A DNA stretch of 23,621 bases from an uncultured Deferribacteres bacterium (GTDB lineage Bacteria > Zhuqueibacterota > Zhuqueibacteria > Zhuqueibacterales > Geothermadaptataceae), in contig CAXHAT010000128.1 in the NCBI GenBank assembly GCA_964014485.1, forward strand, positions 1-23,621, read 5' to 3'. The position numbers and the translations under genes were made by a program. Below, piece after piece: positions 3,701 to 21,115 of this stretch (within the stretch, counting starts at the first letter, position 1; each line of letters begins with the position of its first letter). A model generated the notes under the pieces. The model was not told the DNA's origin and made no database searches. It saw only the letters and a list, made by a program, of their open reading frames with translations.

Positions 3701-6700
3701 AAGCCGTCTTGACTGTCGTTCCTGAACAAAAAGTTGTTTTCGACATCGTTCGCTACAAATAAGTCCAAATCACCATCGTTGTCATAATCTCCCCAACTGC
3801 CGCTTCTAGAAGCGCCTCCACCTGAAAATATTGCTCCTGAGGAAATGAGGCTAAAATCACCCACGTCTGTGTTCATGTAAAGAAAATCACTTTCGCCATA
3901 ATTTGCTACAAACAAATCTAAATCCCCATCGTTATCAAAATCGCCCCAGCTACTACCCATCGATCTTCCGCCACTATTACCGATTGTATCTGCCGTAATG
4001 CGAATAAAAGAGGAAGTTGCGAAAGTGCCATCTAATCCATAAGAAGTACCGCTATCATTTGAAGCTATTATACGGTAATGATATCTGGTGTCAGGGGTTA
4101 AGCTATTCAGAACAGCGCTAACCGAAGAATTGCCAGCGCCATTTATCGGGTTAAATGTAGACGAAATAGTATGGCCATAATCGGTTGTTTCGCCCCACTC
4201 AAAGATAGCTGATGTTATTTGACCATTCGGATTGACTGTGCCACGAAGAGTCGCACTTGTTACTGAAACCAGTGCTGGGTTTGTTATAACAATTGGAGCT
4301 TGAGGTTTTTCTGTTAACGTCAAGAATTGATCTACGTGTGTATTCTCAATATACTGAATTATTCCGCTAGGCCATTCAACTTTGAGCGAGTCTATCGTCT
4401 TTGCATCGCCTAAACCAAACTCGGCGTTTAAGCTGTTTTGACTAGCGAATCCTGTCTGACCAGAGATTTCTTGCAACTGCCAAAGTGCTTGCCCGCCAAT
4501 AGTAGCTTTTAGACGTATCTTTGCACCGATAGCTGAAGTATTGGAAAGAGTTCCTACGAGGTATGTATTGATCCAATGATTACTATTGCCTTCATTTCTA
4601 TAAAGCAGAATTTTACCATCGAAGTTGATAACCACCAAGTCTAAATCGCCGTCGTTGTCATAATCACACCAACTCCCGCTTCGAGAATTGAGACTGTCTT
4701 TGACAATTTTGCTCTCTGTGATTTTTTGAAAACCAAGGTCTCTGTCGTTTCTGTACAAAAAGTTACTTCCATTAATATTCGCAACGAAAAGATCCAAATC
4801 GCCATCATTGTCATAGTCGCCCCAACTACTGCCTCTGGAAGAACCTTTGTCATTAACAATGTCACCATCTGTGATTTTATTAAAGGTGCCATCACCATTA
4901 TTCTTATACAAGAAGTTCTTCCTTGTTGAAATGACATTTGTCACAAACAAATCCAAATCGCCGTCATTGTCATAATCGCCCCAACTTCCGCCTTGGGAAC
5001 TCCCCCCATCATTCACTACTGGACCGGTGGTAATTCTGGAAAAGCTGCTGCCACCGTCATTACGGTACAAAAAATTGTTTTCGTCGTCAATATTCGCTAC
5101 GAATAAATCCAAATCACCGTCATTATCATAATCGCTCCAGCTACATCCTATTGAGTTTCTACCATTGGTGGCAATTGGACCATTGGTGAGTTTTTCAAAA
5201 CCATTGTTGTTATCATTGATATAAAGGAAGTTAGGAGAGCCACTGCCCGCGAGGGAAGAGTTCGCTACGAATAAGTCTAAAGACCCATCATTGTTATAAT
5301 CGCCCCAGCTAGTTCCGAATGAATGACCGTTATCGCTGGATATGGAGCTATCGAGCACTTTTGTAAAACTCATGGCCCCATCGTTACGATACAAATAGTT
5401 CTCCCCATCATTTAAAAGCAAAGCATTTGCCACAAATAAATCTAGGTCTCCATCATTGTCAAAGTCGCCCCAACTACTTCCTATTGAATAAGCAAGATCG
5501 GAAGTAAGCGCACCCAAAAATATTCTACTAAAACGACCATCGGCGAGGTTTTCATACAAGTAGTTTGTTCCACCAAAAACGGTCACAAATAAATCGTTAT
5601 CGTTATCGTTATCAAAATCTCCCCAACTTGCGCCTTCCAAAAATCTGTCTTCCTGGATAGTGGCATCCAAAACGATACATGTGAAATGGGTTAAAGCTAA
5701 AGTCAAAAATGTCTTACCAGTACCTCGTGTTGTATCCACTCCATTTGTTGCAACAACGCGGTAGTAGTATTTAGTTGCGGGATTCAGATCATTTAAAACA
5801 GCGCTAATTAAAGTTGTGTTTGTCCCGCTTAGAGGATTTTCGACTGCAAAAACCTTGCTTCCATAGTTCATTGTCTCGCCATATTCAAAATATACTTCTG
5901 TAGCAAAGCCATTTGGGTTAACGGTACCGAGGAGTTGAGCAGAAGATGAAGTAATTTCTACTGCGTTGCCTGTCTCCACTTCAGGCGTACTTGGTCTTGG
6001 TTCTTTAATAGTTATAAATTGATCTGTTATGACATTTGTAGTATCCCAAACAATGCCGCTTGGCCATTCGATTTTTATCGAATCAATCATAGTCGCATCG
6101 GCTAAACCAAATTCGACATTCAGGCTGTTGTGACCGCCAAAGCCTGTTTGCCCAGAAATCTCTCGCGATTGCCACATTGAAGTTTGCAAACCTCGTTGCT
6201 CAACCTTGATTCTTACTTTTGTTCCTATAGCAGACCTGTTTGAAACCGAACCCAAACAAAGGATATTGATCCAATGACCACCATTGTTGTTGTTTTGGTA
6301 TAAAAAATTATTATCTCCTAATGTCGCAACGAACAGATCAATATCGCCATCATTGTCATAATCGCCCCAACTACAGCCCCAGGAGTTCCCGCCATCATTG
6401 ACAATTTCGCCGGATATGATTTTAGTAAAAGCACCTCTGCCATTGTTCTCATATAAGAAGTTGTTGCCGTTAAAAACATTTGTGACAAACATATCTAAAT
6501 CGCCGTCGTTGTCATAATCCCCCCAAGCGCTACCGTTCGAATTTCCTATATCAGTTACAATTGGATTACTGGCGATTTTGGCAAAGCCACTCATTCCATT
6601 ATTTTTGTACAAAAAATTATTTTGACCGAGGTTGTTCGTTACGAATAAATCGATGTCATTATCGTTATCGTAATCTCCCCAACTGCCACTACTTGAAGCA

Positions 6701-7515
6701 CTAATATCGGTGACAATCTCACCGGTAGTGATTTTGGTAAATTCGCCGTTACCATTATTCTCATATAAAAAATTGCTCTCGGTAAAAAAGTTTGCTACAA
6801 ATAAATCCATATCACCATCATTGTCATAATCACTCCAACTACAGGCTCCTGAGTTTCCGGCATCATTGACAATTTCGCCGGTCACGATTTTTGTAAAGGC
6901 GCCATCGCCAGTGTTCTCATACAAGAAATTATTTTGATTTTCGTTACTGACAAATAAATCCAGATCGCCGTCATTGTCGAAGTCGACCCAACTGCAACTC
7001 CAGGATTTTCCACCATCATTAACAACAACCCCTGTTGTGATTTTGGTGAAGTTGCTGTCACCGTTATTCTCATACAAAAAATTGTCTTGGTTGGAGCCGT
7101 TTGCTACAAACAAATCTAAATCGCCGTCGTTGTCATAGTCCCCCCAACTACTACTGTGAGACTGCCCTCCATCATAGACGATATCGCCGATAATGATTTT
7201 AGTAAAATGCCCATCGCTGTCATTTCGATACAAAAAGTTGTCTTCACCTCTGTTATTCGTCCCTGTGCTGTCAGGCGAGATTGTGTTCACTACAAACAAA
7301 TCCAGATCGCCGTCATTATCGTAATCACCCCAACTCGCCCCTATCGAGTATCCTTCGTCATTGACAATAGCGCCAGTAGTGATTTTGGTGAATTGTTGTG
7401 CATAAAGATCATGAAGCCTAGGGAGGAAACAAAAAAGCAACAGTATAGCAAAAATGCTCCTGTTAATAACGGCAATCAATACAGTTGTAGATGAAGTTTG
7501 TTGTTTAGTTTGCAT
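721..7515 (-). CDS. Large secreted protein: 3x (FG-GAP/VCBS beta-propeller + ASPIC/UnbV, CRTAC1-like) separated by FN3-like domains, then Ig-like domains and a C-terminal FlgD-Ig/T9SS-type sorting domain
   Basis: 2264-aa ORF with a hydrophobic N-terminal signal and about 20 'SWGDYDNDGDLDLFV.N....N.LY.N' blades. Three 'N.W.......G..SN.SAIG.K.R...SGQTG...NSLN.EFGL...EWPSG' ASPIC/UnbV domains end near nt 6000, 4305 and 2660. Two 'SA.L.GTVNPNG..T...FE.GET..YG' domains lie between them. The C-terminus is 'FELSQNFPNPFNPSTTIRYGLP...IYNILGE...WDGRN..G..VASGLYFYRI...KMLLVQ'. Confidence 0.92.
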   Translation of the reverse strand: MQTKQQTSSTTVLIAVINRSIFAILLLFCFLPRLHDLYAQQFTKITTGAIVNDEGYSIGASWGDYDNDGDLDLFVVNTISPDSTGTNNRGEDNFLYRNDSDGHFTKIIIGDIVYDGGQSHSSSWGDYDNDGDLDLFVANGSNQDNFLYENNGDSNFTKITTGVVVNDGGKSWSCSWVDFDNDGDLDLFVSNENQNNFLYENTGDGAFTKIVTGEIVNDAGNSGACSWSDYDNDGDMDLFVANFFTESNFLYENNGNGEFTKITTGEIVTDISASSSGSWGDYDNDNDIDLFVTNNLGQNNFLYKNNGMSGFAKIASNPIVTDIGNSNGSAWGDYDNDGDLDMFVTNVFNGNNFLYENNGRGAFTKIISGEIVNDGGNSWGCSWGDYDNDGDIDLFVATLGDNNFLYQNNNNGGHWINILCLGSVSNRSAIGTKVRIKVEQRGLQTSMWQSREISGQTGFGGHNSLNVEFGLADATMIDSIKIEWPSGIVWDTTNVITDQFITIKEPRPSTPEVETGNAVEITSSSAQLLGTVNPNGFATEVYFEYGETMNYGSKVFAVENPLSGTNTTLISAVLNDLNPATKYYYRVVATNGVDTTRGTGKTFLTLALTHFTCIVLDATIQEDRFLEGASWGDFDNDNDNDLFVTVFGGTNYLYENLADGRFSRIFLGALTSDLAYSIGSSWGDFDNDGDLDLFVANALLLNDGENYLYRNDGAMSFTKVLDSSISSDNGHSFGTSWGDYNNDGSLDLFVANSSLAGSGSPNFLYINDNNNGFEKLTNGPIATNGRNSIGCSWSDYDNDGDLDLFVANIDDENNFLYRNDGGSSFSRITTGPVVNDGGSSQGGSWGDYDNDGDLDLFVTNVISTRKNFLYKNNGDGTFNKITDGDIVNDKGSSRGSSWGDYDNDGDLDLFVANINGSNFLYRNDRDLGFQKITESKIVKDSLNSRSGSWCDYDNDGDLDLVVINFDGKILLYRNEGNSNHWINTYLVGTLSNTSAIGAKIRLKATIGGQALWQLQEISGQTGFASQNSLNAEFGLGDAKTIDSLKVEWPSGIIQYIENTHVDQFLTLTEKPQAPIVITNPALVSVTSATLRGTVNPNGQITSAIFEWGETTDYGHTISSTFNPINGAGNSSVSAVLNSLTPDTRYHYRIIASNDSGTSYGLDGTFATSSFIRITADTIGNSGGRSMGSSWGDFDNDGDLDLFVANYGESDFLYMNTDVGDFSLISSGAIFSGGGASRSGSWGDYDNDGDLDLFVANDVENNFLFRNDSQDGFRKISAGPITSDGGISRSGSWGDYDNDGDLDLFVANAPENNNFLYENTESGFQKVTTSVVVSDNGDSQCGSWGDFDNDGDLDLFVANASGENNFLYENTESGFQKLTADVIVSDNGDSQSSSWGDYDNDGDLDLFVANGSGESNFLYENIGNGSFLKVTTGAIVSDGHNSQSSCWGDYDNDGLLDLFVSNNDSENFLYKNNGNGNFQKISGSVIVVDNTDSRGASWGDYDNDGDLDLFVTIFGNNNLLYQNLETNNNWINIRAKGRISNSSAIGTKIRIRANINGKPVWQMQEISGQTGLASQNSLNVELGIWISSIVDSIKIEWTSVIKQIATNLEPDQFLTIAEKGNNNRPALANSLPGLRLGRNGDVFQRDLEQSPTVFLDPDNDNLSYRASSLDTTIAIVQISGKTLQVTSRSEGQTDITVTADDGFGGITKDQFSVFVQAEFRRPEIQAFQAESSPLNQDLEITARITDDDGIVSTFLLYREAGKNNFTQAVMRLEETVYVGTIPSEDISTRGLEYYLTATDNAGGATREPVLDEFSIQVAFENPGVSSPALSSGNFLESGYRLFSVPFELENNAPESVLIDDLGEYGSTHWRFFELDPDQNYVEYPNTSGFAPGKAFWLNVVDAGKVVRTGAGKTNVTSGPFQIPLHPGWNFIGNPFDFLIPISHLSRKSGEAVELRAYDGAWNDPDSIQVESIESFSGYAIANNQTMWDTLLVDPDLSRTPNSLAKTNSPHKSTTAATWAIRIHAENGRASDRDNIAGVARNAAVEWDFMDKSEPPVIGDFISVYFPHPEWQKPLKSYCRDFRPEPTEGEIWDFEVRTSSTDKVLLTFKNMESVPVEFQVWLVDEAAGVARNLRERNQYSLAGRGPESPRALKLVVGKQSFVEEQVATYQEIPQTFELSQNFPNPFNPSTTIRYGLPRAEKVTLKIYNILGEEIAELVSDEQKQAGYHAAVWDGRNRQGNIVASGLYFYRIKAGDFIQTRKMLLVQ

Positions 7516-7539: not shown

Positions 7540-8313
7540 TTATTGCTGATCTGGCAAAGCCGGCGGTGCCGGTATTTGTCGTTCTTGTTTTATGCCAAGA
7601 AAATATGCGGTTATCCCCGCCGCTGAGACAAGGCCTCCGCCAATGATGAGCCGCCATTTCTTTTGACCGGATTTTTTCCCCAACTGTGGTCTCAGTTCAT
7701 CGAGCATTTGTGCAAAAGCGGGCGAGTCATCCGGGTTGGCGGCATAGGCCGGATTCAATCGTAGAATTTCCTGCACCGCCGTCTTGGCCAGATTGGGATA
7801 GTCGTTCCGAATATAGGCCAGGCTAACCAGTCGGTAAACCTGTATGGCCTGAGCGTCATCGTCAAAGTCTCCGGCAAGGCAAGGCTTCATGCGCTCAATA
7901 ACCCTATCAAAGCGGCCAAACTCGTAGTCTTGCTGCGCCCTTGCCAGGGCTTCGGCGCAAGCGTTCTGTGTTTGAGAAAACCCGGGCGTCAAGCCGGTAA
8001 AATGAAACAGCAGCAGCAATCCGGCGAGTCGCAGGCGCGCTTTGGCAGTGGGGCAAAGATTCGCCCGAAAAGGTGTTTTGAAACGAGCCGCCAATACCAG
8101 CAAGGTCATACCCGGCCCCGCCTGCGCGAGGCTAAACTCCGGCGAGTATCCAAATTCTTTGGGTGTTCGGCGAGACTGGATGCCCGCCTGCGCGGGCATG
8201 ACACCGTCGGTTACGCTCAAATTTTCGCCAGAACCATTTTTAAGCGTTTTGTTACGGATGTTTTTTGCTATCATTTTAGAATCGTTCATCGTCGAAGCCA
8301 TACCGCTTAGCAT
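7540..8313 (-). CDS. Exported TPR-like helical protein with C-terminal membrane anchor and Pro-rich tail (start codon uncertain)
   Basis: Signal-like 'RLRLAGLLLLFHFTGLTPGFSQ', TPR-like helices 'CAEALARAQQDYEFGRFDRVIERMKPCL...YRLVSLAYIRNDYPNLAKTAVQEILRLNPAY', then 'KKWRLIIGGGLVSAAGITAYFL' and 'IPAPPALP'. The 5' part of the ORF contains a palindromic element, so the true start may be further downstream (e.g. ATG at 8109). Confidence 0.75.
   Translation of the reverse strand: MLSGMASTMNDSKMIAKNIRNKTLKNGSGENLSVTDGVMPAQAGIQSRRTPKEFGYSPEFSLAQAGPGMTLLVLAARFKTPFRANLCPTAKARLRLAGLLLLFHFTGLTPGFSQTQNACAEALARAQQDYEFGRFDRVIERMKPCLAGDFDDDAQAIQVYRLVSLAYIRNDYPNLAKTAVQEILRLNPAYAANPDDSPAFAQMLDELRPQLGKKSGQKKWRLIIGGGLVSAAGITAYFLGIKQERQIPAPPALPDQQ
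8105..8202. repeat. GTCAT...ATGAC palindromic element (REP/RPE-like MITE)
   Basis: Ends are GTCATACCCGG...GAGTATCC and GGATGCCCGCCTGCGCGGGCATGAC, and CCCGCCTGCGCG occurs in both arms. It translates to the hallmark peptides VMPAQAGIQ (minus strand) and LDARLRGHD (plus strand). Confidence 0.85.
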
Positions 8314-8318
8314 AATTT

Positions 8319-11075
8319 TTAATTCGAGCCTGTTTGAGCATTCGGGCCCGGCAGATCAGGACACGCACGCTCGTAAGGAATATCGACGCCGACATAGGTC
8401 GCCCATTCTTCCCTGGCCAAATTGCGCGTGCACTCCCCGCAGACTTTTTCCGCGAGAATCTCGGGGCGGGTGATCCAGAAACGCAGGGTTTTATCACCGC
8501 CGCCCGTGACCAGGGTTTCGCCCCCCGGGTCGAAAGCAATGCTCCAAACCCAGGATTCATGGCCTTGCAGCATGATTGGATCGATCTCTTCTTCCAGACT
8601 CCACAGGCGAATAGTCTTGTCCGAGCTTGCTGTTGCAACCCGACGACCGTCCGGACTCAAAGCAATGGCGTTGATCGGTCCGGCGTGGCCGGTTCGCAAA
8701 ATCGGCTCAGAGTTCGGGTCATTCAGCCGCCAAAAACGCAGAACGCCAGCCGTTCCGCCACCAGTCATCAAAACGGAATCTTCCGCGACGAAATGCAGCG
8801 CATTGACCTTGCCGTCGTTCTGAAAGGTTGAAGCATCGCCGGTTTGCGTGTTCCAGAGCTGAACCACGCCGTCATCTCCGGCGGAAGCGAGTTGGTCGCC
8901 CTGAGCGCTGAACGCGAGCGCTCGGACGCGACTTTCGTGCTCAAACGTTTTTTTCAGTTTGGTGTTTGGCTTTGCCGTGTCCCATAGCAAAATCTTGCCG
9001 CTGGCACCCGCTGAGGCCAGCGTTTGAAAATCCGCGCTCTGCGCCAAAGCCCAAACGCGATTCTCATGCCTGTCCGAAGTCGCTTTCCGGCGTAAATTAT
9101 CATCTTTGGTGAATTGCCAGAACATGATGGCGTTATCGTCGCCCGCCGTAATCAGCGAGTTCGTTTTCGAGTTGAAAAGCATGGCGCGAACGCCGGCTTT
9201 GTGGCGGTTGTCACCGGACAGAAACCGCTGGGTGTCCTTGGTCATCAGTTCAAGATATGAAACCGACCCGTCTTCGCCGCCGGTGAAAACGTATTTCCCG
9301 TCGGGTGAAACCGCCAGCGCTCGCACGCCGGAAGAAAGACGCATCACGGTTGGGCCGCCCAGATTTTTGCCATCTCGCTCGCCCAGGGCGTTCAATGAAG
9401 TGCGCAACGCTTCATAAACCTGCTCCTCAAAGCCGCCGCCGTATTTTTCATTAAAAAGCCAGGCTTGCCTTGCCAAGAGAGCGGCGCGTTCGAGCTCAAA
9501 TTGTTCCTGCTGTTTTTGCGATTCAATGGTCAACGAGAGCGCCAAAGTCGTCAAACGCTGGCGGCTCACTTGCGAGATGGTTTTTTCCAAAGAATCGTTG
9601 GCGACGTCGGCTACACCGAGCAAACTATCGGCGCGTTGTTTTTCTTGCGTCGTTTGTCGCTGCGCCTGTCGGGCCTGGTTGGCGGCGCGTTGTTCGGCCT
9701 CGGCAAAAGTGGTCGCACGTTCCGCTTCTTTTTCGGCTTCCAGCCGCGCAAACTGTAAAGCCGTGGTCGAATCATTCAGGTTTTTATTTGCGCTTTGCAA
9801 TTGCTCATTGAGTCGCAGGGTTTCATTCAGCCTTTCTTGCGCAAGTCTTGCATTTTCCTGGGCAGTGTTCGCGGCTTTTGTTCTTTCGCGTGTGGCGTTG
9901 ATGAATCCGAAAAGCAAAACCAGTGAAGTTATCAGCAAAAGAACGACAAAAGCCGACGCCACTTTGACGCCTCGCGGCACGGTCTGGAACCAACTCACCG
10001 GCCAGTGTTCTTTCAGCCAATTGCGGTCGAAGACGTTTTTATAAATACGATTGCGAACATGGAGCTTGCCGTTTTCCCGCCGTACGATGCCGGAAAGCTT
10101 GAGATGGTTTTTCACCGGCGATTGTTCTTCATCGCGCAACGGACGCTTGGTGTAGCGAATTTCCTTGTAGGTCAGCAAGGTTTTGAGCACAGCATCAGCG
10201 CGCTTGGTCAGCATTTCGCCGACAAAGCGCAGGTTGTGATCGTGCTCGCTTTCCGGGCCGAAGAAGGTTTCCGCAACAAGGTCGTTTAAATTGTCTTCGC
10301 GCCATTCGTCACGCGCTCGTTCCGCCATCGCCTGGCACAAGCGTTGGGTGAGGTAAGGATGCCCGCGCGTCCAATGCATGATCAAATCGAGCGTTCGCTC
10401 GTTTTGGTCGCGCGGCAGTCCCAGACCTTCGACCAGCGGCAAGGCTTCTTCAAAAGTGAAATCGGTGACGTCCACCCGTTGCCCGATGTTGAACGGCGTG
10501 CGGTTGGCGTCTTTCATCAAATCGCCGGGGGTGGCGACGCCGATGAGGACGAACGAAAGGCGGGAGAATTCCGGCGTTTGCGCGCGCTTATTGTACAGGT
10601 AGCGGATGGCGGCAAAAAAGTCGTCGGTGAAGTCGAGACTGAGGGTGATATCGATTTCGTCGATGAAAATCGTCACTTGTTGCTCGATGTTTGCCAGAAC
10701 GAATTCCTGGAAAAAACGAATCAAACGATGAGAAACGCCCAGATTCGCATTTGAGCGCCACCACTCGTCGATATCCGCATCCAACGTCAGCTCGTCGGCG
10801 ATGATGGTCAGCAAAGTGACGTACCATGTTTCGGCGTCGACTTGCGTACCGACCTGGTTGAGATCGATGATGATGCAACGCTGTTCTTCTTTTTTCAGTT
10901 GCGCGGCCGTTCGCACCATCAGACTGGACTTCCCGACCTGGCGCGCGGAAAGGACGTAGGCGAACTCTCCTTTTCGGCAGAGTTGGAATAAGTCCTTGTC
11001 CGCGTTACGGGCCACGTAAAGCCCGACGCCCGGGCGGATGGTGCCGCCGACGGTGTATGTGAGCGTATCAGCCAT
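8319..11075 (-). CDS. AAA_35-type STAND P-loop NTPase - transmembrane helix - coiled coil - WD40 beta-propeller
   Basis: N-terminus 'YTVGGTI....LYVARNAD', Walker A 'LSARQVGKSS', Walker B 'TIFIDEID', plus 'RTPFNIG' and 'WTRGHPYLTQRLC'. TM 'VASAFVVLLLITSLVLLFGFI' is followed by an Ala/Gln/Glu-rich coil, about 7 WD40 repeats and a C-terminal 'C.RNL.REEW..Y......C P' motif. The ATG at 11075 overlaps the upstream stop (ATGGCTGA), so it is preferred to the track start at 11102. Confidence 0.9.
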   Translation of the reverse strand: MADTLTYTVGGTIRPGVGLYVARNADKDLFQLCRKGEFAYVLSARQVGKSSLMVRTAAQLKKEEQRCIIIDLNQVGTQVDAETWYVTLLTIIADELTLDADIDEWWRSNANLGVSHRLIRFFQEFVLANIEQQVTIFIDEIDITLSLDFTDDFFAAIRYLYNKRAQTPEFSRLSFVLIGVATPGDLMKDANRTPFNIGQRVDVTDFTFEEALPLVEGLGLPRDQNERTLDLIMHWTRGHPYLTQRLCQAMAERARDEWREDNLNDLVAETFFGPESEHDHNLRFVGEMLTKRADAVLKTLLTYKEIRYTKRPLRDEEQSPVKNHLKLSGIVRRENGKLHVRNRIYKNVFDRNWLKEHWPVSWFQTVPRGVKVASAFVVLLLITSLVLLFGFINATRERTKAANTAQENARLAQERLNETLRLNEQLQSANKNLNDSTTALQFARLEAEKEAERATTFAEAEQRAANQARQAQRQTTQEKQRADSLLGVADVANDSLEKTISQVSRQRLTTLALSLTIESQKQQEQFELERAALLARQAWLFNEKYGGGFEEQVYEALRTSLNALGERDGKNLGGPTVMRLSSGVRALAVSPDGKYVFTGGEDGSVSYLELMTKDTQRFLSGDNRHKAGVRAMLFNSKTNSLITAGDDNAIMFWQFTKDDNLRRKATSDRHENRVWALAQSADFQTLASAGASGKILLWDTAKPNTKLKKTFEHESRVRALAFSAQGDQLASAGDDGVVQLWNTQTGDASTFQNDGKVNALHFVAEDSVLMTGGGTAGVLRFWRLNDPNSEPILRTGHAGPINAIALSPDGRRVATASSDKTIRLWSLEEEIDPIMLQGHESWVWSIAFDPGGETLVTGGGDKTLRFWITRPEILAEKVCGECTRNLAREEWATYVGVDIPYERACPDLPGPNAQTGSN

Positions 11076-13299
11076 CGAGATGTTGTCCAAAATAGTCCGC
11101 ATACAGTTTACAGCGCGGCTTCATCTTGCCGTTTTCCCGGTGAACTAGCCCGGCGCCACGCAGCCGGAAGAAAACGCGCTCATCCTGGCACGTGTTGTTT
11201 TGAATGATCTGCCTCAAGCCGTGCAGCAGCTTTTCATGATCGATGAGATGAAAAAGGTAGTAACGCAAATTATCGCCAAACGGGCCGTCGTCATGGCCAG
11301 CGGTTTTAAAAAAGTCTTTCACCATGAACGCGCCACTTGCGATTAAGTAGAGCGCCTTGCGCGTCAGGTAAGGATGACCTCCCAACAACTCGGTTAGCTC
11401 AGCCAATTCATCCTTCGTGAACGGCGCATCGTGCAACCGGTTGAGCGTTTCGATATGTCGAAGAGTGAAGTCGGACAATTCGATTTTGACGCCGACATTG
11501 AACGGCGATTGATAAGGGTTTTCGATAAACAGATAAGGCTCGGTCGAAGTGACGAGCGCGAGGTCGAGCCTGCTCCAAACCTGGCTCGACGCTCTTTTGT
11601 TGTGCCAGCCGCGCAGCATGCCAAAAAAATCGTTGCGAAAATCCTTGTCGAAAATACTCTCGACCTCGTCCATCGCCAGAAGCAACGGCTCGGTCACTGT
11701 ATTCAACACATGGCGTTGCAGGTAACGCAGACATTTTTGCGTATAACCGGCGGCGGATTGCCAATACTCATCAACGCGATCTTCGATTTCGAGCTCATCC
11801 GAGATGTAGGTGCAGAATTGACGAAAAAATGTGTCTGCGTCCTTCATAGTGGAATCATCAAAGAATTGAAAGTCGAGAAAGGCGACGTGCTTATCGGCGT
11901 CTCTCGCGGCGCTCATTACACGATTGAGCAAAGAGCTTTTACCCATCTGACGCGGCGCTTTGATGGTGATCGTGACGCCCTGCTGGGCGATGGCTTGCAG
12001 CGCAACGTGGTCGCCGTTACGTTCAACATAAAATTGGGATTCCGTCCGCATTGTGCCTTCCGGCATTTCCAACTGAATCGGTTGCGCCGAAGGAAGCGGC
12101 TCATCATACTTCCTTTCTTCTTTTTGAGTAATTTCATGCCTGGATTCTTCCACCAAAACCGGCTCGCCGCCAGACACGACGCGCAGCAATTCATCGATCA
12201 GTCGTCGGCTATCATTTTCATCTTCCCAAAAGGCGCAGTTGATGTGATCTAAGTAAACGCTAATTGGGTAGGGCAGATCATCACGGAAAGCCACACGAAT
12301 CGGGAGAATCAGGGGGCGTCCGTTTCGTTTGGCAAGCTCATTCGATTTCTTAATTTCATACGCCACCATTTCACTGTTGATAGATTTTTTGGAAAGGAGA
12401 ATGATAATAAAATCGGAATTTTCGAGTTCAGAATCGATGCGTTCCGCCCATTTCGTCCCAACAAGCATCGCCTGGTCAATGAACACGCTGTGCTCCTGTT
12501 TCAAGGCGTCGTAGAGTCTTAGGGCCAGCGGTTCGTCCGGTTCATGATCACGCTTGTAACTCAGAAAAATACGCTTTTTCGGCTTTCGTTCGGCCTTGAT
12601 AATAGTGTTGTTGATCAACAGTTGAGGTGTGTCTTGCTCCCCAATATTTTCCATATCAATTTGCAGGCAACCGAGCTCAAAGGCGGTTTTGATGTCCCTG
12701 CCAAATCCAAGAGCCTGATAAAACGCGGCAGCAAAACTCACCGACGCTGAGTCTGAAATGGCTCTCGACATGCCGACGACATAGTCAATGTTTTGCGCAA
12801 CGCCTTCTGCTTGCTTTTCGGAATAACAGGCATTCAAAACCACGCATTTCACATTGTCCTTCAGAACTTGAAACAATTTAGCAAAAGCGTCCGACGGCAC
12901 GGGATGTAAATCGCCGGAATCGTCTTCTAACAGAATCTCACTTTCCGTGCTGCCGTGCCCGCTAAAATGTACGATATCCGGTTGATGGCGTAATAGATGG
13001 CCCTGTAAATCGCTTACGCGCACCGCCCATTCCTGCTCGAGAATGAACTTGTCATGTAGCGCCGATTGCCGCAATGCTTGCTTGATTTCGCGTATCTCGC
13101 CGTCCAATCTGAGCTGCTCTGTACCGCGCGGATTGGAAGCGATGAAGAGAACTGAAATTGGTGATACTCCTTCGCTTCCAACGCTCGCTCCATCTAAAAG
13201 CAATTCGTTTTTAGAATCGGATACTTCGCTCCCGACAATCTTTCGATTCGAGTTCATACGCTTTCTAAATGTATAATTGTTATATACTTGATGATGCAC
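11068..13299 (-). CDS. CHAT (caspase-like) - TIR - AAA_35 STAND NTPase fusion protein
   Basis: CHAT 'VLFIASNP...LRLDGEIREI...DIVHFSGHG...CVVLNACYS' (nt 13152-12616). TIR 'RIFLSYKRD...VFIDQ...GTKWAERIDSELENSDFIIILLSKKSINSEMVAYEI' (from ~12573). AAA_35 'PEGTM....FYVER', Walker A 'IKAPRQMGKSSL', Walker B 'LAMDEVE', 'QSPFNVG', 'GGHPYL'. The start may instead be the ATG at 13257. Confidence 0.92.
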   Translation of the reverse strand: MHHQVYNNYTFRKRMNSNRKIVGSEVSDSKNELLLDGASVGSEGVSPISVLFIASNPRGTEQLRLDGEIREIKQALRQSALHDKFILEQEWAVRVSDLQGHLLRHQPDIVHFSGHGSTESEILLEDDSGDLHPVPSDAFAKLFQVLKDNVKCVVLNACYSEKQAEGVAQNIDYVVGMSRAISDSASVSFAAAFYQALGFGRDIKTAFELGCLQIDMENIGEQDTPQLLINNTIIKAERKPKKRIFLSYKRDHEPDEPLALRLYDALKQEHSVFIDQAMLVGTKWAERIDSELENSDFIIILLSKKSINSEMVAYEIKKSNELAKRNGRPLILPIRVAFRDDLPYPISVYLDHINCAFWEDENDSRRLIDELLRVVSGGEPVLVEESRHEITQKEERKYDEPLPSAQPIQLEMPEGTMRTESQFYVERNGDHVALQAIAQQGVTITIKAPRQMGKSSLLNRVMSAARDADKHVAFLDFQFFDDSTMKDADTFFRQFCTYISDELEIEDRVDEYWQSAAGYTQKCLRYLQRHVLNTVTEPLLLAMDEVESIFDKDFRNDFFGMLRGWHNKRASSQVWSRLDLALVTSTEPYLFIENPYQSPFNVGVKIELSDFTLRHIETLNRLHDAPFTKDELAELTELLGGHPYLTRKALYLIASGAFMVKDFFKTAGHDDGPFGDNLRYYLFHLIDHEKLLHGLRQIIQNNTCQDERVFFRLRGAGLVHRENGKMKPRCKLYADYFGQHLDG
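12616..13152 (-). repeat. CHAT-coding direct repeat, copy A (537 bp)
   Basis: Gap-free alignment with 15394-15930; 156 of 179 aa identical by manual count. Confidence 0.92.
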
Positions 13300-13417
13300 T
13301 GATATGGCATTCTTTTATACTGACTGTAGTCAAGAATGGAATCGAGCTTGTTTTGATTACTATCACGACAGATACCCGTTGTGCAATACGATCCAAAAAA
13401 CACAAAGATTAATTTGG

Positions 13418-14497
13418 TTAATTCTTTGTATTTACTCGCTCTATGTAAAGTATTGTGTCTCCTTCGGCAAGACCCTCCAAAATTTCTGTAAAATTATCGT
13501 CTTTCCAGCCTGTCCTCACCCAGCGCTTGGTCACGGTGTGTCCGCTCAAAATATTAACGTATGGGCGACGTCGTTCTTTTTCAATGGACCAGTTCGGGAC
13601 TGTTAACACATTAGGAATTCCTTTGGCCTCGAACTTAACCGTAGCCGTCATTTCCGGTTTAAGAGGAAGATCTCTATCATCTGTGATTTTTATGAGACAA
13701 ACGAACTGCATAACTCCTTCATTCATTTCACCTCTTGGGCGAAGGAATTCGACTCTGCCTTTGCATTCTTCCCCAGGATATGCATCAAGGAAAAAAGATA
13801 CTTTTTGACCACGTCCGACTCTACCAACGTCAGCTTCCTCAACGTACGCCCACAATTCTAACCTTTTAAGATCGATGATCGTCAAAAGCGTTGGTGCGAG
13901 AAAACTGGCTGCCACGGTTTCACCTTGATCGATGTTTATAGCCGATACGACTCCTGAGATAGGGGCGACAATTTCTGTATATTCAAGTTTAACTCTGGAA
14001 GCCTCTAAATTAGCTTCGGATTGCTTTTTCTCATATTCTGCGATTATTTGAGCTTTTTCAGCTAGATCTTTGTCCTGTTCTGAAGCAAACTTCTTTTCAT
14101 ATAGTTCTCTAATCCGTCTTACGGCTAAATTGGAGTATTCGAAGCTAGCGTCGCTGCCCTGTTTTGCAGCCAACCATTGTCTGTGAGAAGCTTCGTATTC
14201 TGATTTATCTAACTGGCCTAGAGTATCTCCTTCTGAAACGATATTCCCAACTTTGACAAACATACTCTTGATAATACCCGAAGCTCTACTTCCTACTTTT
14301 ATCTCAGCGTCCCTCTCAGGCTTAATCGTTCCTATAGCCACCACGACAGAGTCCAAATCCCGATGGGTTGCGATAGAAACTTGTCTTGTTCGCAAACTCT
14401 TAGATTCGACTTGCAATACCTTGTCATAGACAATCCAGCCCGATAATCCTAGGATAACTAAAAAACAAAAAAACAAGAGTATGTTTTTCGTATTCAT
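13418..14497 (-). CDS. Efflux transporter periplasmic adaptor (membrane-fusion protein), MacA/HlyD-like
   Basis: N-terminal TM anchor; lipoyl-like halves 'IKVGSRASGIIKSMFVKVGNIVSEGDTLGQLD' and 'IVAPISGVVSAINIDQGETVAASFLAPTLLTIIDL'; an alpha-hairpin between them; 'LKPEMTATV' and 'VRTGWKDDNFTEILEGLAEGD'. The track start at 14509 is also possible. Confidence 0.92.
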   Translation of the reverse strand: MNTKNILLFFCFLVILGLSGWIVYDKVLQVESKSLRTRQVSIATHRDLDSVVVAIGTIKPERDAEIKVGSRASGIIKSMFVKVGNIVSEGDTLGQLDKSEYEASHRQWLAAKQGSDASFEYSNLAVRRIRELYEKKFASEQDKDLAEKAQIIAEYEKKQSEANLEASRVKLEYTEIVAPISGVVSAINIDQGETVAASFLAPTLLTIIDLKRLELWAYVEEADVGRVGRGQKVSFFLDAYPGEECKGRVEFLRPRGEMNEGVMQFVCLIKITDDRDLPLKPEMTATVKFEAKGIPNVLTVPNWSIEKERRRPYVNILSGHTVTKRWVRTGWKDDNFTEILEGLAEGDTILYIERVNTKN

Positions 14498-14526
14498 GAT
14501 AACATGCACTACAGATGTTGACGGGC

Positions 14527-15987
14527 TTATTGAGTTTGAGAAGAATTACCAATAAGTACACAAACAGCTCGAACTGATCTTGTAGAATGAGCGGGAGTAT
14601 GCTGATATAATGCATCTACAAATGAAACAGTCCAGCAATTCCCTTCTTCACTTTTTGTAGATGTCCAAATATCTTTTTGTGTCGCATCAAACAAAGGACT
14701 GACCGCCAAATTGGCATTTTTCTTTTCAGATTCCAAGAGAGCAAGAGCTTCAGGAAGAGTTGGTAAACGCCAATTCTTATATCCGGCAAACTTAACCCTT
14801 CTCAAGCTTTCAACATATACCACAGCTTTCTCAAAAGACAGGGGCAGAGACGATCCCGATTGTTGCCATACTAAATCCGTCGCTTCATCAATCACAACTT
14901 CCTGATTATTGAAAGACTCTACGCGGTATTTGTGCTGGATTCCGTTTCCTTCACGGTTAATAACTTTATCATACAAGTTGTTGTTTTTTATTATTTGTTC
15001 AACTTGTCCTGATGACAGCAGAGTATGTTTTGGCGAATAAATCGAATCGGTTTCACTATTTTGGTTTTTATGAGGTGATTGAGGCTGTTTGCCCGGATTA
15101 AATTGAAGATATTGATCGTCAGAGTACTCTCTTTGTCGTGGTGAATAAGAGGCATCTTTCGCTTCTGGACCTGAAAAAGAATCCTTTGATGAGAGGGACT
15201 TAATAGGGAAAGACCCACTGTATATATAAAAGACTACAGTCAAAGTTAGAAGCAATGCCCCCACGACACCCGCATACCATTTCCAATTTTTCTTTTTCCC
15301 GTCTTTTCCTATTTCTGTATGATCTGAGCCAATAGTTCTTTTGAGTTCCATTGTCGCGACAGGATTAAATGTTTTGTGCGTTCCGTCTTTCGCCAACAAT
15401 TGGGGCGTGTCTTGCTCACCTAGTATTTCCAAATCAATTTGCAGGCAACCCAGGTCAAAAGCTGTCTTGATATTCCGGTCAAACCCTAGAGCTCGGTAAA
15501 ACGCCATGGCAAAACTCACTGAAGCTGAGTCTGAAATCGCTCTCGACATGCCGATGACGGAGTCGATATTCTGCGCGATGGCATGTCCCTGTTGTATCGA
15601 ATAACAGGCGTTCAGAACCACGCATTTCACATTGTCTTTGAGTACTTGAAACAGTTTGGCCAAAGCGTCCGAGGGCACGGGATGCAAATCGCCTGACTCG
15701 TCTTCTAACAGAATTTCGCTTTCCGTGCTCCCGTGCCCGCTAAAATGCACAATGTCCGGCTGATGACGCAAAAGATGCCCCTGCAAATCGCTGACGCGCA
15801 CCGCCCATTCCTGTTCGAGAATGAACTGGTCTCGCAACGCCGATTGTAGTAATGCTTGCTTGATCTCGCGTATTTCAACGTCCAGTCTGAGCTGCTCTGT
15901 GCCGCGCGGGTTGGAAGCGAGGAAAAGAACTTTTAACGGCTTGGAGCGTTCTTGTTGCTCCGTGCCGTCGTTTTTCTTCATTGCCAT
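14527..15987 (-). CDS. CHAT (caspase-like) - transmembrane helix - DUF1566 (Lcl C-terminal, C-type-lectin-like fold)
   Basis: CHAT with 'HFSGHG' and 'VVLNAC'. TM 'KKKNWKWYAGVVGALLLTLTVVFYIY'. DUF1566 motifs 'VVIDEATDLVWQQSGS', 'FAGYKNWRLPTLPEALALLE' and 'IWTS.......WTVSF..........VRAV'. Confidence 0.88.
   Translation of the reverse strand: MAMKKNDGTEQQERSKPLKVLFLASNPRGTEQLRLDVEIREIKQALLQSALRDQFILEQEWAVRVSDLQGHLLRHQPDIVHFSGHGSTESEILLEDESGDLHPVPSDALAKLFQVLKDNVKCVVLNACYSIQQGHAIAQNIDSVIGMSRAISDSASVSFAMAFYRALGFDRNIKTAFDLGCLQIDLEILGEQDTPQLLAKDGTHKTFNPVATMELKRTIGSDHTEIGKDGKKKNWKWYAGVVGALLLTLTVVFYIYSGSFPIKSLSSKDSFSGPEAKDASYSPRQREYSDDQYLQFNPGKQPQSPHKNQNSETDSIYSPKHTLLSSGQVEQIIKNNNLYDKVINREGNGIQHKYRVESFNNQEVVIDEATDLVWQQSGSSLPLSFEKAVVYVESLRRVKFAGYKNWRLPTLPEALALLESEKKNANLAVSPLFDATQKDIWTSTKSEEGNCWTVSFVDALYQHTPAHSTRSVRAVCVLIGNSSQTQ
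15394..15930 (-). repeat. CHAT-coding direct repeat, copy B (537 bp)
   Basis: Gap-free alignment with 12616-13152 at an offset of 2778 bp. Confidence 0.92.
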
Positions 15988-17783: not shown

Positions 17784-20231
17784 ATGTTTAACGTGAGCAT
17801 ATCCATGAAAAACGGCAAAGCGCATTTTTTATTTTCAATCCTGTTTACGCTTGGCTTCGCGATCCAGGCGCTTTTGAGCCAAAGCAGCCAGGTGCCTTAC
17901 GGCGCGCGTCCGGCGGGAATGGGCGACGCTTTCGTCGCGCTTGAGAACGACGCCAATACGTTGTTTTGGAATCCGGCGGGCATGTCATGGCTTGAGCACC
18001 ATGAACTCATTACCATGTACGGCAATCCCCTCGGGGTGCCCGGATATTCCAATCGGATGCTGGGCTACGTCTTTCCGGTCTCTTCCCGCCTTGCCCTTGG
18101 CGCCAGCGGCTTCTTTGACGGCGTTCAGGATCTGGATGACAACAGTCTGGGTCTTGATTTCGGATGGACCATGCTGCAATTGTCATCAAGTTACAAGTTT
18201 ACGGACAAGCTTTCCTTTGGCCTGACCGGCAAGTTCGTACAGATGAGCGCTTCGGAAGACTTGCAGCAGCAAGGGAGTCCCGTCGGCTTTGGCGCAGACC
18301 TGGGGGCGTTTTACAAAACAAATAAATGGCGCTTCGGAGCGATGTGGCAAGACGCGGGCGGCATGCGCATCCGTCATGCAGCCGGAAGCGCCGGCGACGC
18401 AACAACGCCGGACTCGTTGCGCAGTTCCTGGGAAACCGTACGCGATCAACTCTTTCGTCTCGGCGCGGCCTGGTCTCCGCGTTCGCCATTGACATTCTCG
18501 GCGATGATTACGCCCGGAGATCGCATCCACTTCGGCGCTGAATACTGGATGTTGAACGACCTTGTCGCCGTGCGCGCGGGCTTGCAGCACGACGTCTACG
18601 ATACGCCGTCGCCGGAAACGATCTACGCCGCCGGTTTCAGCCTGAAAAAGTCTATCGTGCGCATCGATTACGCTTACGTTATGCCGCCAGTGCTGCCAAA
18701 CAGCTCTCGTCTGTCTTTGTCTCTGGCCGTTTCCTTCCGCCGCGCCAAAGTCAAGTTAAGCGATGAGCGTTTCGACAGGCTGTTTCCCAGCCGTTACGGC
18801 GACTATCAAGCACTTTCGCTCGGTCATGTGACGCTTGCAAACGAAGAAAAAACGGAGATCCTAGCCAGTGTCGAGTTTTTCATACCAGCCTTAATGGAAA
18901 AGGCGGAAACTGTGATCAGTAACAAGACCATGGCGCCAGGCGAGACAAGCACGATTCATTTCAGTCCGAAAAGCCTGCTTCGAAAAAAGGCTCTGGCCGT
19001 CGACAATCCACGGGGCGCTAACGCCGAAGTTCGGGTGCTTTATGATCAAGGCGCTGATGCCAATTTCAATAAGAAGCACAAGCGCAGATATAGAGTCCAG
19101 CTATTAAAAGCCGGGGCCGTCTCCTGGAAAAACGGACCCGGAGCTGCGGCCAGTTTCATATCACGCGATGCTCCAATTGTGCAGCAATTCGCACGCGACG
19201 TTCTCGATCCTTTCGCGGATGATTTATCAAAAGTCGAAGGCTCCGACAATTTACACAAAGCGGCTATCTTGTTTGACGCGCTTGGGCGTTTGGACATTCG
19301 CTACTTTCCTGACCAGGAGAAACCATTCGTTTCCATGGTCGCCGACACCAGCGGCGACGCCTTTGACGTGATTCACTATCCAAGCGAAACGCTGACGCGC
19401 TATGGACGCGGCGATTGCGACGACCTGACCGTGCTTTACGCTTCGCTGCTGGAATCCGTCGACGTGCCGACGGCGCTTGCTTTTTCACCAGGGCATATCT
19501 TTCTCTTGGTCGACAGCGGACAAAAGCCCTACGCCGCTGAAGAATTGTTTGACGATCCGTCCGTCTACCACGTCCGCGACGACAGGTTGTGGCTGCCCGT
19601 TGAAGTCACCATGATCGGCCAAAACTTTCATCAGGCAGTCATCAATTCCCGGATCAAAGACCTGCAACAGATGGTTACCGTAGAAAAAGCGTGGACGCAG
19701 TTCCGCCCCGGTTATCCGGCCCAAGAAAACCGGTCGCTGCCCGCGCCGCAACGCTCGAGCATCGAAACGCTCTATCACGCTGATCTCAAATGGCTGCAAA
19801 CGCGCGGCTTGAGCGCCGAGCGAGAAAACCTGGAAAAAACGCTCGCGACGCAGCCCGATCATCTCACGACTTTGAAAAAACTGGCGTTGCTCGAACGACT
19901 CGAAAACAACCGACAGCGCGCGAAAGAACTCTATCTGCGGCTTACTGAATTGGAAACCGACGTTCCGGAGCATCTTTTCGAATTGGGTCGTCTGCACAGT
20001 GCCGACGGTGAATTTGATGCGGCGGAAAGACAAGCGCAAGCTTTGCAAACGCGCTTTCCGCAGCAGCCGTATGCGCTGGTGCTGCGGGCCATAGCTTTCT
20101 ACGAAGCAGGCAACGATCAGGAAGCCCTGCAGGTTTATAGCCAGGCCAAACAGCTCGACCCGGAAGCGGCGGTGGTGAAGGAATACAAAGTGGACGTCTG
20201 GATCAATTCACGCAATGAACAAGGGAACTGA
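17784..20231 (+). CDS. PorV/PorQ(FadL)-like outer-membrane beta-barrel fused to an Ig-like region, a transglutaminase-like (Cys-His-acidic) domain and TPRs
   Basis: Signal peptide (start possibly ATG 17805) and 'YGARPAGMGDAFVALENDANTLFWNPAGMS'. Amphipathic beta-strands run to 'RIDYAY...RLSLSLAVSF'. Then 'IHYPSETL...GDCDDLTVLYASLLES...PGHIFL...LWLPVEVT' and C-terminal TPRs ('ALQVYSQAKQLDPE'). Confidence 0.85.
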   Translation: MFNVSISMKNGKAHFLFSILFTLGFAIQALLSQSSQVPYGARPAGMGDAFVALENDANTLFWNPAGMSWLEHHELITMYGNPLGVPGYSNRMLGYVFPVSSRLALGASGFFDGVQDLDDNSLGLDFGWTMLQLSSSYKFTDKLSFGLTGKFVQMSASEDLQQQGSPVGFGADLGAFYKTNKWRFGAMWQDAGGMRIRHAAGSAGDATTPDSLRSSWETVRDQLFRLGAAWSPRSPLTFSAMITPGDRIHFGAEYWMLNDLVAVRAGLQHDVYDTPSPETIYAAGFSLKKSIVRIDYAYVMPPVLPNSSRLSLSLAVSFRRAKVKLSDERFDRLFPSRYGDYQALSLGHVTLANEEKTEILASVEFFIPALMEKAETVISNKTMAPGETSTIHFSPKSLLRKKALAVDNPRGANAEVRVLYDQGADANFNKKHKRRYRVQLLKAGAVSWKNGPGAAASFISRDAPIVQQFARDVLDPFADDLSKVEGSDNLHKAAILFDALGRLDIRYFPDQEKPFVSMVADTSGDAFDVIHYPSETLTRYGRGDCDDLTVLYASLLESVDVPTALAFSPGHIFLLVDSGQKPYAAEELFDDPSVYHVRDDRLWLPVEVTMIGQNFHQAVINSRIKDLQQMVTVEKAWTQFRPGYPAQENRSLPAPQRSSIETLYHADLKWLQTRGLSAERENLEKTLATQPDHLTTLKKLALLERLENNRQRAKELYLRLTELETDVPEHLFELGRLHSADGEFDAAERQAQALQTRFPQQPYALVLRAIAFYEAGNDQEALQVYSQAKQLDPEAAVVKEYKVDVWINSRNEQGN

Positions 20232-20236
20232 AAACG

Positions 20237-21115
20237 ATGCGAAATAAATATAGCGGTTGCGTCTTCTCGTTGTGTCTGCTTGCACTCGCGCCGACAACCG
20301 GCTTGACGCAAAACAACGGCGGCGCATATCTGAAAAACTACTTTGCGCGCGAAGTCTCCGACGGCTTGCTGATCAAGCTCTTTCGCGTGCAAAAAGAGCT
20401 TGAAAACAGCGCGCGCGGCGACGATCCGCGCACCGGGCTTTTTCTAAATCTCTGGAAAATCAAGGCTGATCTGAACGAGCCGCCGGAGTACTTGACCGCA
20501 ACCGAGGATCAAGACAATAACTTTCCGCGTTGGTCCCCCGACGGCAAGCGCATCGCCTTTCTGCGCGGCACGCGCGCCACCAAACTCTGGCTTATGGACG
20601 CCGACGGCGGCAATCAGCGCGCTTTGACCGACGGCTCCGGCTCGGATCGATTCCCGCTGTGGAGCCCCGACGGCGAACGGATTGCTTTCGTGCGCAACGG
20701 CGCTTTGAGGATCGCTTCGATTGCCGCAGGAAAAGTTGACGCCGTTTCTATAAAAGAACGCGTTTATCAGCCCTGCGCTTGGTCGCAGGACGGGCGCGGT
20801 CTTTTGCTCGCCGTACAGGAACGCGACGAAACCTGTCAACTGATGCAGTTAAACGTGGATTCGTTGACAACGGTGATCGTCAACCCGGAACCGTCAAAGG
20901 ATTATAAAATTTTCACCGACCTGCGCCTGCATCCGAGTGAAGATCAAGTGCTCTATGATCAGTTCTTCGGCAGGCGCTGGGACGTGATCCTGCGTCACGT
21001 CGACGACAAATCGGGCGCGACAATTTCCGAATCCTGGTCCACCGATCTCAATCCCGATTGGTCGCCCGATGGCGCGTACATCGTCTATGCTTCAACACGT
21101 AAGCCCAGGCAGTGA
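20237..21115 (+). CDS. Exported TolB-like PD40 beta-propeller protein
   Basis: Signal peptide and PD40 repeats 'FPRWSPDGKRIAF', 'FPLWSPDGERIAFVR', 'CAWSQDGRGLL' and 'NPDWSPDGAYIVYAS'. It starts 5 nt after the upstream stop and overlaps the next gene by GTGA. Confidence 0.88.
   Translation: MRNKYSGCVFSLCLLALAPTTGLTQNNGGAYLKNYFAREVSDGLLIKLFRVQKELENSARGDDPRTGLFLNLWKIKADLNEPPEYLTATEDQDNNFPRWSPDGKRIAFLRGTRATKLWLMDADGGNQRALTDGSGSDRFPLWSPDGERIAFVRNGALRIASIAAGKVDAVSIKERVYQPCAWSQDGRGLLLAVQERDETCQLMQLNVDSLTTVIVNPEPSKDYKIFTDLRLHPSEDQVLYDQFFGRRWDVILRHVDDKSGATISESWSTDLNPDWSPDGAYIVYASTRKPRQ

Follow-up and report, generated by a model that had tools for sequence, protein, structure and literature searches.

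One CHAT protease-like module on a TIR-AAA_35 protein and on a membrane Lcl_C protein: probable local duplication and shuffling onto two sensors in an uncultured Deferribacteres bacterium

Two nearby genes on the minus strand of a contig from an uncultured Deferribacteres bacterium (GCA_964014485.1, contig CAXHAT010000128.1) encode otherwise unrelated proteins, P0001 and P0002, whose N-termini carry nearly the same 179-residue CHAT module, here called CHAT-A and CHAT-B. The window analysed is the entire 23.6-kb contig (23,621 nucleotides), and the host genome is an 8.4-Mb draft, 97% complete, with a guanine-plus-cytosine (GC) content of 0.502. The comparisons demonstrate that CHAT-A and CHAT-B share an origin and that their split is old, at about 0.9 synonymous substitutions per synonymous site (dS). 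Probably the pair arose by duplication and shuffling that were local and specific to this lineage, and that put a promiscuous and slowly evolving CHAT module, predicted to be catalytically competent, on two putative sensors. The elements concerned are:

12616-13152, minus strand: CHAT-A, N-terminal caspase-like protease module of P0001, 179 aa (Pfam CHAT, 37.1 bits; cut-off 24)
15394-15930, minus strand: CHAT-B, N-terminal module of P0002, 87% identical to CHAT-A (Pfam CHAT, 38.5 bits; cut-off 24)
11068-13299, minus strand: P0001, 743 aa from a GTG start, with CHAT, TIR_2 and AAA_35 (a STAND-like NTPase) by Pfam
14527-15987, minus strand: P0002, 486 aa, with CHAT, one predicted transmembrane (TM) helix and a C-terminal Lcl_C/DUF1566 domain (Pfam, hydropathy)
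21112-22920, plus strand: P0004, the third CHAT protein, with CHAT-C at 21139-21672, a TM helix at residues 225-243 and about 350 aa without a family match

CHAT-A and CHAT-B align over 179 residues without a gap and differ at 23 of them (87.2% identity; BLASTP E 6e-109, far past chance), so that the positions and counts given in an earlier reading of the letters alone, the original prediction, proved exact. Their DNA is 83.1% identical, with differences at 17, 11 and 63 of the 179 first, second and third codon positions, respectively, in line with the many third-position changes described there. The module edges are sharp: 30-nt windows outside are 13-37% identical, compared to 87% and 80% for the first and last 30 nt inside, which bears out the claim that similarity stops abruptly at both ends. 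The proteins are indeed different apart from this module (CHAT with TIR_2 and AAA_35 in one, CHAT with a TM helix and Lcl_C in the other), as the prediction had described them. In a tree of 254 CHAT modules the two copies form a sister pair (support 0.996), and their 87% identity stands against at most 73% to any other copy. CHAT-C is more divergent, as had been proposed, being 46% and 44% identical to A and B. The host-genome search that the prediction had called for (tblastn) showed no further near-identical copy in that genome: apart from A, B and C (the last at 46%), which all lie on this contig, it returned four distant CHATs of no more than 30% identity. The same two proteins are recorded from three (P0001) and four (P0002) contigs, which makes an assembly artefact unlikely.

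Compared by the Nei-Gojobori method, A and B showed 0.069 nonsynonymous substitutions per nonsynonymous site (dN), a dS of 0.909 and a dN/dS of 0.076. The longest identical run between them was 21 nt against a median of 26 nt under random placement, and no conversion tract was seen. A dS of about 0.9, the low ratio and the short identical runs indicate that the copies are old, that purifying selection acts on them and that they escaped homogenisation. A ratio near 1, proposed beforehand as the mark of simple recent duplication, was not what we obtained, but this test does not discriminate, because the family baseline is equally low. Among relatives with the same CHAT, pairs of at least 75% amino acid identity and finite dS gave dN/dS values of 0.012-0.22, and the orthologous (between-genome) pairs among them gave 0.012-0.16 (e.g. 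0.070, 0.075, 0.080 and 0.089). Each of the 20 CHAT loci of relatives behind this baseline holds one copy only within 10 kb. Since the ratio is low also where no partner copy lies nearby, the A-B value is uninformative on heterodimerisation, and the purifying selection on A and B is at the level normal for this CHAT subclass. Within-genome paralogues in the relatives were 66-76% identical and orthologues up to 99%, and neither concerted evolution nor homogenisation was seen in those relatives. A low dN/dS says little where the entire domain family is equally constrained, and the locus illustrates how far a near-identical domain shared by neighbouring conflict genes can, and cannot, serve as proof. 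Two unpublished genomes (G023, G016) enter some rows of the relatives' comparison, tree and dN/dS analyses and supply one 254-aa copy, the FHA fusion mentioned below (G016) and one of the two SIR2-CHAT examples (G023); both were left out of the alignments used for structure, and the main conclusions are independent of them.

To place the module among its relatives, we ran phmmer with CHAT-A against 1.84 billion cluster representatives, which gave 15,601 matches at E <= 1e-3 and 4,883 at E <= 1e-30. Among the single-module matches listed, most were 56-69% identical and P0002 alone exceeded 70%. The partner domains included NB-ARC-TPR, FHA, TPR, pentapeptide repeats, SIR2, protein kinases, receiver domains, methyltransferase, FGE-sulfatase, E2-like, ankyrin repeats and nSTAND2. 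In other members of the subclass the partner is a recognised adaptor domain (EAD7, EAD10, EAD11 or TRADD-like N), so that in those proteins CHAT is the cargo. The module is N-terminal in 31 and C-terminal in 65 of 96 single-module representatives, and a TM helix is predicted after it in 9 of 20 copies from relatives. It was found in 16 of 60 relatives searched, a sample with no genome from the host's own genus (none of nine of the same family, 12 of 19 of a sister family), with up to six matches at E <= 1e-10 per genome. On these comparisons the class of CHAT-A and CHAT-B is a very large, slow-evolving and promiscuous CHAT subclass. Some chains carry the module in tandem (P0266-P0274, P0277, P0280, P0288, P0296, P0297, P0307, P0338 and P0366), with copies 34-67% identical to one another. 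Often one copy fails simple His/Cys patterns, which are crude and may miss variant motifs, and such chains may be active/inactive pseudo-dimers.

All three CHATs of the window score above the PF12770 cut-off of 24 bits (31.3 for CHAT-C), and the PADLOC 'chat' model matches all three. His66 (in HFSGHG) was present in 44 of 44 and Cys109 (in LNAC) in 43 of 44 aligned family members, and A, B and C keep both. We take these two residues to be the catalytic pair from the position of their motifs, on general knowledge of caspases. The AlphaFold2 model of CHAT-A reached a predicted local distance difference test (pLDDT) score of 89.9 and a predicted template modelling score (pTM) of 0.88. In a Foldseek search its best match was the SAVED-CHAT filament 8TL0 (E 7e-12, TMq 0.83, 22-25% identity), followed by caspase-4, -11, -8, -7 and -9 and MALT1. 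The module therefore belongs with the CHAT proteases of clan CD by sequence match, caspase-type fold and His-Cys pair, and because the pair is intact and the fold is that of CHAT and caspases, it apparently resembles an active protease and not a degenerate scaffold. The codons of the pair, and the segment in which the two copies differ most, lie as follows:

12955-12957, minus strand: codon of His66 in CHAT-A
12826-12828, minus strand: codon of Cys109 in CHAT-A
12799-12819, minus strand: variable patch of CHAT-A, residues 112-118, EKQAEGV
15577-15597, minus strand: variable patch of CHAT-B, residues 112-118, IQQGHAI

The clustering of differences directly after the catalytic Cys, noticed in the original prediction, withstood a permutation test: six of the 23 differences fall in residues 112-118 (p = 0.002, or p = 0.001 when weighted by family variability). 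The proportion of nonsynonymous differences (pN) was 0.48 in the patch compared to 0.05 in the rest of the module, and the patch lies on a predicted helix (residues 112-119 of the AlphaFold2 model) immediately behind Cys109. CHAT-B deviates at the family-conserved Ala115, and CHAT-A at Ala117 and Ile118 (each 95-96% conserved in 137 members). Over all 23 differences A matches the family consensus at nine, B at ten and neither at four, and the copies are equally derived. This pattern fits a divergence after duplication in substrate choice or regulation. Positive selection within the seven codons is not claimable at 4.3 synonymous sites.

The remainder of P0001 belongs to a widespread family. 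Pfam identified AAA_35 (E 1.4e-108), TIR_2 (6.6e-19) and CHAT (3.1e-09) in the protein; the database copy starts 14 residues further on and has 729 aa. The same CHAT-TIR-AAA_35 order occurs in at least 119 full-length homologues, which show 47-53% identity and come mostly from Nostocales and other cyanobacteria, and the cyanobacterial proteins (annotated 'AAA-like domain-containing protein') match over 93% of the P0001 length. Their CHAT, however, is of a different subclass. In the CHAT tree a split with support 1.0 separates A and B from all 113 homologue CHATs, which share their side with CHAT-C and one other. CHAT-A is 42-51% identical to the homologues' CHATs versus a median of 65% to the other class. 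The CHAT of P0004, unlike A and B, thus sides with those of the cyanobacterial family. In a tree of 61 TIR-AAA_35 sequences P0001 was basal and not nested among the CHAT-bearers, and the N-terminal types (CHAT, none, other) were interleaved, which makes an independent fusion at least as likely as a replacement. On that tree the N-terminal slot of these proteins has changed repeatedly.

P0001 and the cyanobacterial family also have in common a second AAA_35 open reading frame (ORF) directly downstream on the same strand, which was found in 56 of 79 TIR-AAA_35 loci (L041-L119, from cyanobacteria, Chloroflexota, Acidobacteriota, Myxococcota and others) and which corresponds in the window to:

8319-11102, minus strand: AAA_35 and WD40 protein, 927 aa (Pfam), overlapping the end of P0001 by 35 nt

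The downstream gene contains repeats and is distantly related to the TIR-AAA_35 gene. Together the two look like a conserved two-gene NTPase pair that is apparently uncharacterised. P0001 accordingly shares the domain order and the downstream partner of the CHAT-TIR-AAA_35 family and lacks its CHAT subclass. Among the papers listed, we found no experimental study of CHAT-TIR-AAA_35 proteins, which is a weak negative.

The second carrier is of another kind. Hydropathy places the TM helix of P0002 at residues 239-257, and the protein looks single-pass with its CHAT on the cytoplasmic side, in agreement with the membrane CHAT-DUF1566 protein originally predicted. None of the 120 listed matches to whole P0002 covers more than 55% of it, and neither these nor the 24 listed matches to its C-terminal part include another protein joining CHAT and Lcl_C. 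The C-terminal part has 23 relatives besides itself, with Peptidase_C14, TIR, kinase or SPOR at the N-terminus and a Pfam CHAT in none. The host genome holds 12 more Lcl_C proteins, four with TIR, one with NNH1-NACHT and seven without a family match (L132-L143; C30, C34, C74, C5, C135, C45, C130 and C322). Across the phylum, 64 of 167 genomes had Lcl_C matches, with up to 14 per genome. These distributions suggest that Lcl_C is a C-terminal sensor module, from a large family, carried under swappable N-terminal output domains.

The base composition changes where CHAT-B ends. GC at third codon positions (GC3) is 0.575 in CHAT-B, drops to 0.34 and 0.27 over the remainder of P0002, and stays at 0.38 in the HlyD-like gene and 0.33 in the P0001 leader before returning to 0.54 in CHAT-A. 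CHAT-A, CHAT-B, TIR and AAA_35 have a GC3 of 0.53-0.61 versus 0.27-0.38 in the intervening block, which fits exactly between both CHAT repeats:

13153-15393, minus strand: low-GC block, made up of the TM and Lcl_C part of P0002, the HlyD-like gene and the leader of P0001
13418-14509, minus strand: P0003, a HlyD-type membrane-fusion protein (Pfam HlyD_D23 7.2e-24, HlyD_3 1.9e-18)

P0003 lies between both CHAT genes and has a GC3 of 0.383 and an N-terminal TM helix at residues 3-21 by hydropathy. The low-GC block resembles foreign DNA that was fused in frame with a copy of CHAT. As judged from phylogeny at the CHAT-A/TIR joint and from composition at the CHAT-B/TM joint, P0001 and P0002 are both chimeras. 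These two kinds of evidence each mark a joint in a different protein, and they fit copying from A to B as well as from B to A. In the searches made, the combination of CHAT, TM helix and Lcl_C appears new, and so does a CHAT-TIR-AAA_35 protein bearing the CHAT subclass of its neighbour.

We asked whether the pairing recurs. No second CHAT copy was seen within 10 kb in any of the 20 loci of relatives, some of which stop at contig ends. CHAT was present on the TIR-AAA_35 gene in 27 of the 79 loci, and a second CHAT gene lay nearby in one of these 27 (L056), where the pair is 55% identical; several of these loci also stop at contig ends. The neighbours of the module in the relatives were mixed, with STAND genes in some loci (including a NACHT gene at L036) and ordinary housekeeping genes in others. 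Three arrangements are split versions of CHAT-STAND fusions, namely a CHAT-only gene followed by two NB-ARC-TPR genes (L022, 5572-10695), a SIR2-CHAT gene followed by an nSTAND1-HEAT gene (L040, 9038-14451) and a Peptidase_C14 gene directly upstream of a CHAT gene (L034, 2439-4823).

The original prediction had compared the shared CHAT to homotypic adaptor modules of bacterial conflict systems. For the effector-associated domains (EADs) and Death-like domains that follow the 'EAD principle' (Kaur, Burroughs, Iyer and Aravind, eLife 2020, PMC7159879; Kaur et al., eLife 2021, PMC8195603), the 2020 paper describes one copy on a core NTPase and another in a nearby operon gene, a small non-enzymatic domain, and co-located copies that are most alike. 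The likeness here lies in the copy on the NTPase core P0001 and the copy on the nearby same-strand P0002, and in the mutual closeness of A and B (87% versus at most 73%). EADs as described there are small, lack enzymatic features and pair recurrently across genomes, whereas the present module is a protease of 179 aa whose catalytic pair is intact, and its pairing is a one-off in the data examined. The adaptor comparison therefore stands for the shared module, the neighbouring genes on one strand and the sister relationship, and fails for the enzymatic nature of CHAT and the lack of recurrence.

On the reading that we consider probable, one CHAT copy would sit on a cytoplasmic STAND-type switch (TIR and AAA_35) working with its downstream AAA_35-WD40 partner, and the other on a protein that crosses the membrane once and exposes its Lcl_C/DUF1566 domain outside the cytoplasm. 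CHAT would be the output or activating protease, switched on when the sensor part of its carrier clusters it, as in caspases and SAVED-CHAT filaments. P0001 and the AAA_35-WD40 partner may sense an intracellular cue and fire TIR and CHAT together, and P0002 may sense an envelope or extracellular cue through Lcl_C. Both inputs would then lead to the same proteolytic response, most likely a conflict response of the type that ends in cell death or growth arrest, alongside the TIR activity, and the patch after the catalytic Cys could tune substrate choice or regulation of each copy. The locus would be a clear natural case in which an intracellular STAND switch and a membrane receptor bear the same protease output.

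Several observations weigh against this local duplication and shuffling onto two independent sensors, and they are also what can be said for a direct contact between the copies. A and B lie in neighbouring same-strand genes with one on an NTPase core, and they are mutually closest, two hallmarks of homotypic adaptors. The STAND protein carries the CHAT subclass of its neighbour and not that of its 113 homologues, and such matching could be selected. CHAT-CHAT contacts are part of activation in SAVED-CHAT (8TL0; preprint 10.1101/2023.06.23.546230), and two or three CHAT modules per chain occur in 17 of 113 representatives, so CHATs may often work in pairs. A further limit is that co-transcription of the CHAT genes is read from gene spacing, which suggests an operon.

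The alternative that draws on these points is that the near-identical CHATs co-assemble, so that the Lcl_C receptor and the TIR-AAA_35 switch form a mixed protease platform or cross-activate, with their similarity kept for that reason and the patch tuning the pairing. We regard it as unlikely. The sister support of 0.996, the neighbour's subclass on P0001, the interfaces of SAVED-CHAT filaments, the tandem chains and the paired caspase domains within single vWA/VMAP systems (Kaur 2020, PMC7159879) argue for it. Against it, the low dN/dS is the family baseline even without a partner copy, the pairing is seen in 0 of 20 loci of relatives and in 1 of 27 CHAT-TIR-AAA_35 loci (the 55%-identical pair), and the relatives' paralogues (66-76%) fall short of their orthologues (up to 99%), so no homogenisation is evident. 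CHAT is, besides, enzymatic and elsewhere fused to true adaptor domains. The claim in the original prediction that sequence is held constant so that the two proteins heterodimerise was accordingly not supported, as single-copy CHATs of relatives are equally constrained (0.012-0.16) and the pairing does not recur. A complex prediction for CHAT-A with CHAT-B (a 44-row alignment for each, run without controls) scored 0.09 compared to a mark of 0.32 and was counted neither for nor against binding. If the copies do co-assemble, proteases would here couple an envelope sensor with an NLR-like switch. A more specific and quite improbable form has the receptor and the switch wired directly through matched active CHATs, such that clustering of one recruits or fires the other, the STAND protein having taken the neighbour's subclass to match and the patch setting pairing or substrate order. 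If true, it would be a bacterial counterpart of death-receptor-to-apoptosome cross-talk, with protease-protease contacts replacing Death/CARD adaptors. The data partly support an adaptor interpretation but do not need it for their explanation.

Other schemes fare worse. One CHAT might cleave and activate the other protein in initiator/executioner style, as SAVED-CHAT does with PCaspase; a two-protease cascade has been described for that CHAT protein (preprint 10.1101/2023.06.23.546230), A and B both keep the catalytic pair, and the divergent patch adjoins the active-site Cys. The known cascade, however, pairs proteases of different families, whereas the copies here are 87% identical; neither a cleavage site nor a linker motif was identified in them, and the comparative data do not call for a cascade, so that we hold it very unlikely. 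It is even harder to favour a model in which a nucleotide made by the TIR of P0001 activates both CHATs in the style of type IV Thoeris, with both copies keeping the same ligand site. P0001 does fuse TIR and CHAT, and N7-cADPR from a TIR protein activates a caspase-like protease in type IV Thoeris (preprint 10.1101/2024.10.24.620036). In that system the ligand is believed to bind the protease at a C-terminal domain of its own, whereas the 179-aa module has no such extra domain and most subclass members have no TIR nearby. Recent duplication or ongoing gene conversion without selective meaning has almost no chance of accounting for the pair: direct repeats 2.8 kb apart could recombine, but this candidate was rejected on the dS of 0.91, the 63 third-position changes, the ratio of 0.076 and the longest identical run of 21 nt, which is below the median of 26. 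Compared to all of these, duplication and shuffling of an apparently active protease module onto two sensors remains the preferred reading.

Among known systems, the caspases associated with EACC genes are close in logic. In EACC1-caspase systems the caspase module is constant and the C-terminal domains vary greatly, TM and extracellular domains and STAND NTPases among them (Kaur 2020, PMC7159879), EACC2-caspase systems are described along the same constant-module lines in Kaur 2021 (PMC8195603), and the authors propose that the constant caspase is the activating peptidase. In the subclass studied here a conserved caspase-like module is likewise combined with dozens of partner domains, and many of the resulting proteins are membrane-anchored. 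It differs in that the module is often C-terminal (65 of 96) and that the EACC range comprises actinobacteria and some proteobacteria. PF19953, the family of the EACC1 gene, had no match in the host genome, to which this search was confined, so that the constant module with many partners is present there and the 5' EACC1 gene is not. In most relatives CHAT stands at the very N-terminus, leaving no room for EACC2. With EACC1 absent and no room for EACC2, A and B were not filed under the EACC-caspase systems.

The SAVED-CHAT protein of Haliangium ochraceum (8TL0; Steens et al., preprint 10.1101/2023.06.23.546230) resembles CHAT-A as its best fold match and as a His/Cys caspase-like protease. Ligand-driven filaments activate its CHAT and create CHAT-CHAT interfaces. 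It differs in its low identity to CHAT-A, its SAVED nucleotide-binding sensor, its CRISPR/CBASS setting and a partner protease of another family. The vWA-MoxR/VMAP ternary systems (Kaur 2020, PMC7159879) likewise have two caspase-like domains on two proteins of one system, but about 70% of the caspases at the effector position lack catalytic activity, whereas both copies here have intact catalytic pairs. Those systems are defined by their MoxR, vWA and VMAP components. No MoxR, vWA or VMAP was seen in the window or in 50 scanned neighbour ORFs of the relatives' loci. Genes for proteins of 320-360 aa and 750-830 aa upstream of the relatives' CHATs were considered as such a context and proved unrelated (TonB receptors, DPP-IV-type peptidases, alkaline phosphatase and others). 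CHAT and TIR on diversified sensors have been noted by Doré et al. 2024 (PMC10907252).

Six genes lie head to tail on the minus strand of the window (P0002, P0003, P0001, AAA_35-WD40, a 257-aa ORF and an FG-GAP/ASPIC gene), the last two being:

7540-8313, minus strand: 257-aa ORF flanked by the genes for the AAA_35-WD40 and the giant FG-GAP proteins, with zero Pfam or PADLOC matches
721-7515, minus strand: FG-GAP/ASPIC protein, 2264 aa, the last gene of the same-strand run

Promoter and terminator scans of the locus gave a signal no better than that of shuffled sequence, and the window holds no template/variable repeat pair of a diversity-generating retroelement acting on the Lcl_C domain. The FG-GAP/ASPIC gene contains about 21 repeats of about 153 nt each at a low GC of about 0.41, and its product weakly matched a sorting tail of type IX secretion (22.5 bits, under the cut-off). 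On the plus strand, a run at 17784-23620 encodes a TPR protein of 815 aa, a PD40 propeller of 292 aa, P0004, whose start overlaps the preceding gene, and a Reg_prop propeller truncated by the contig end.

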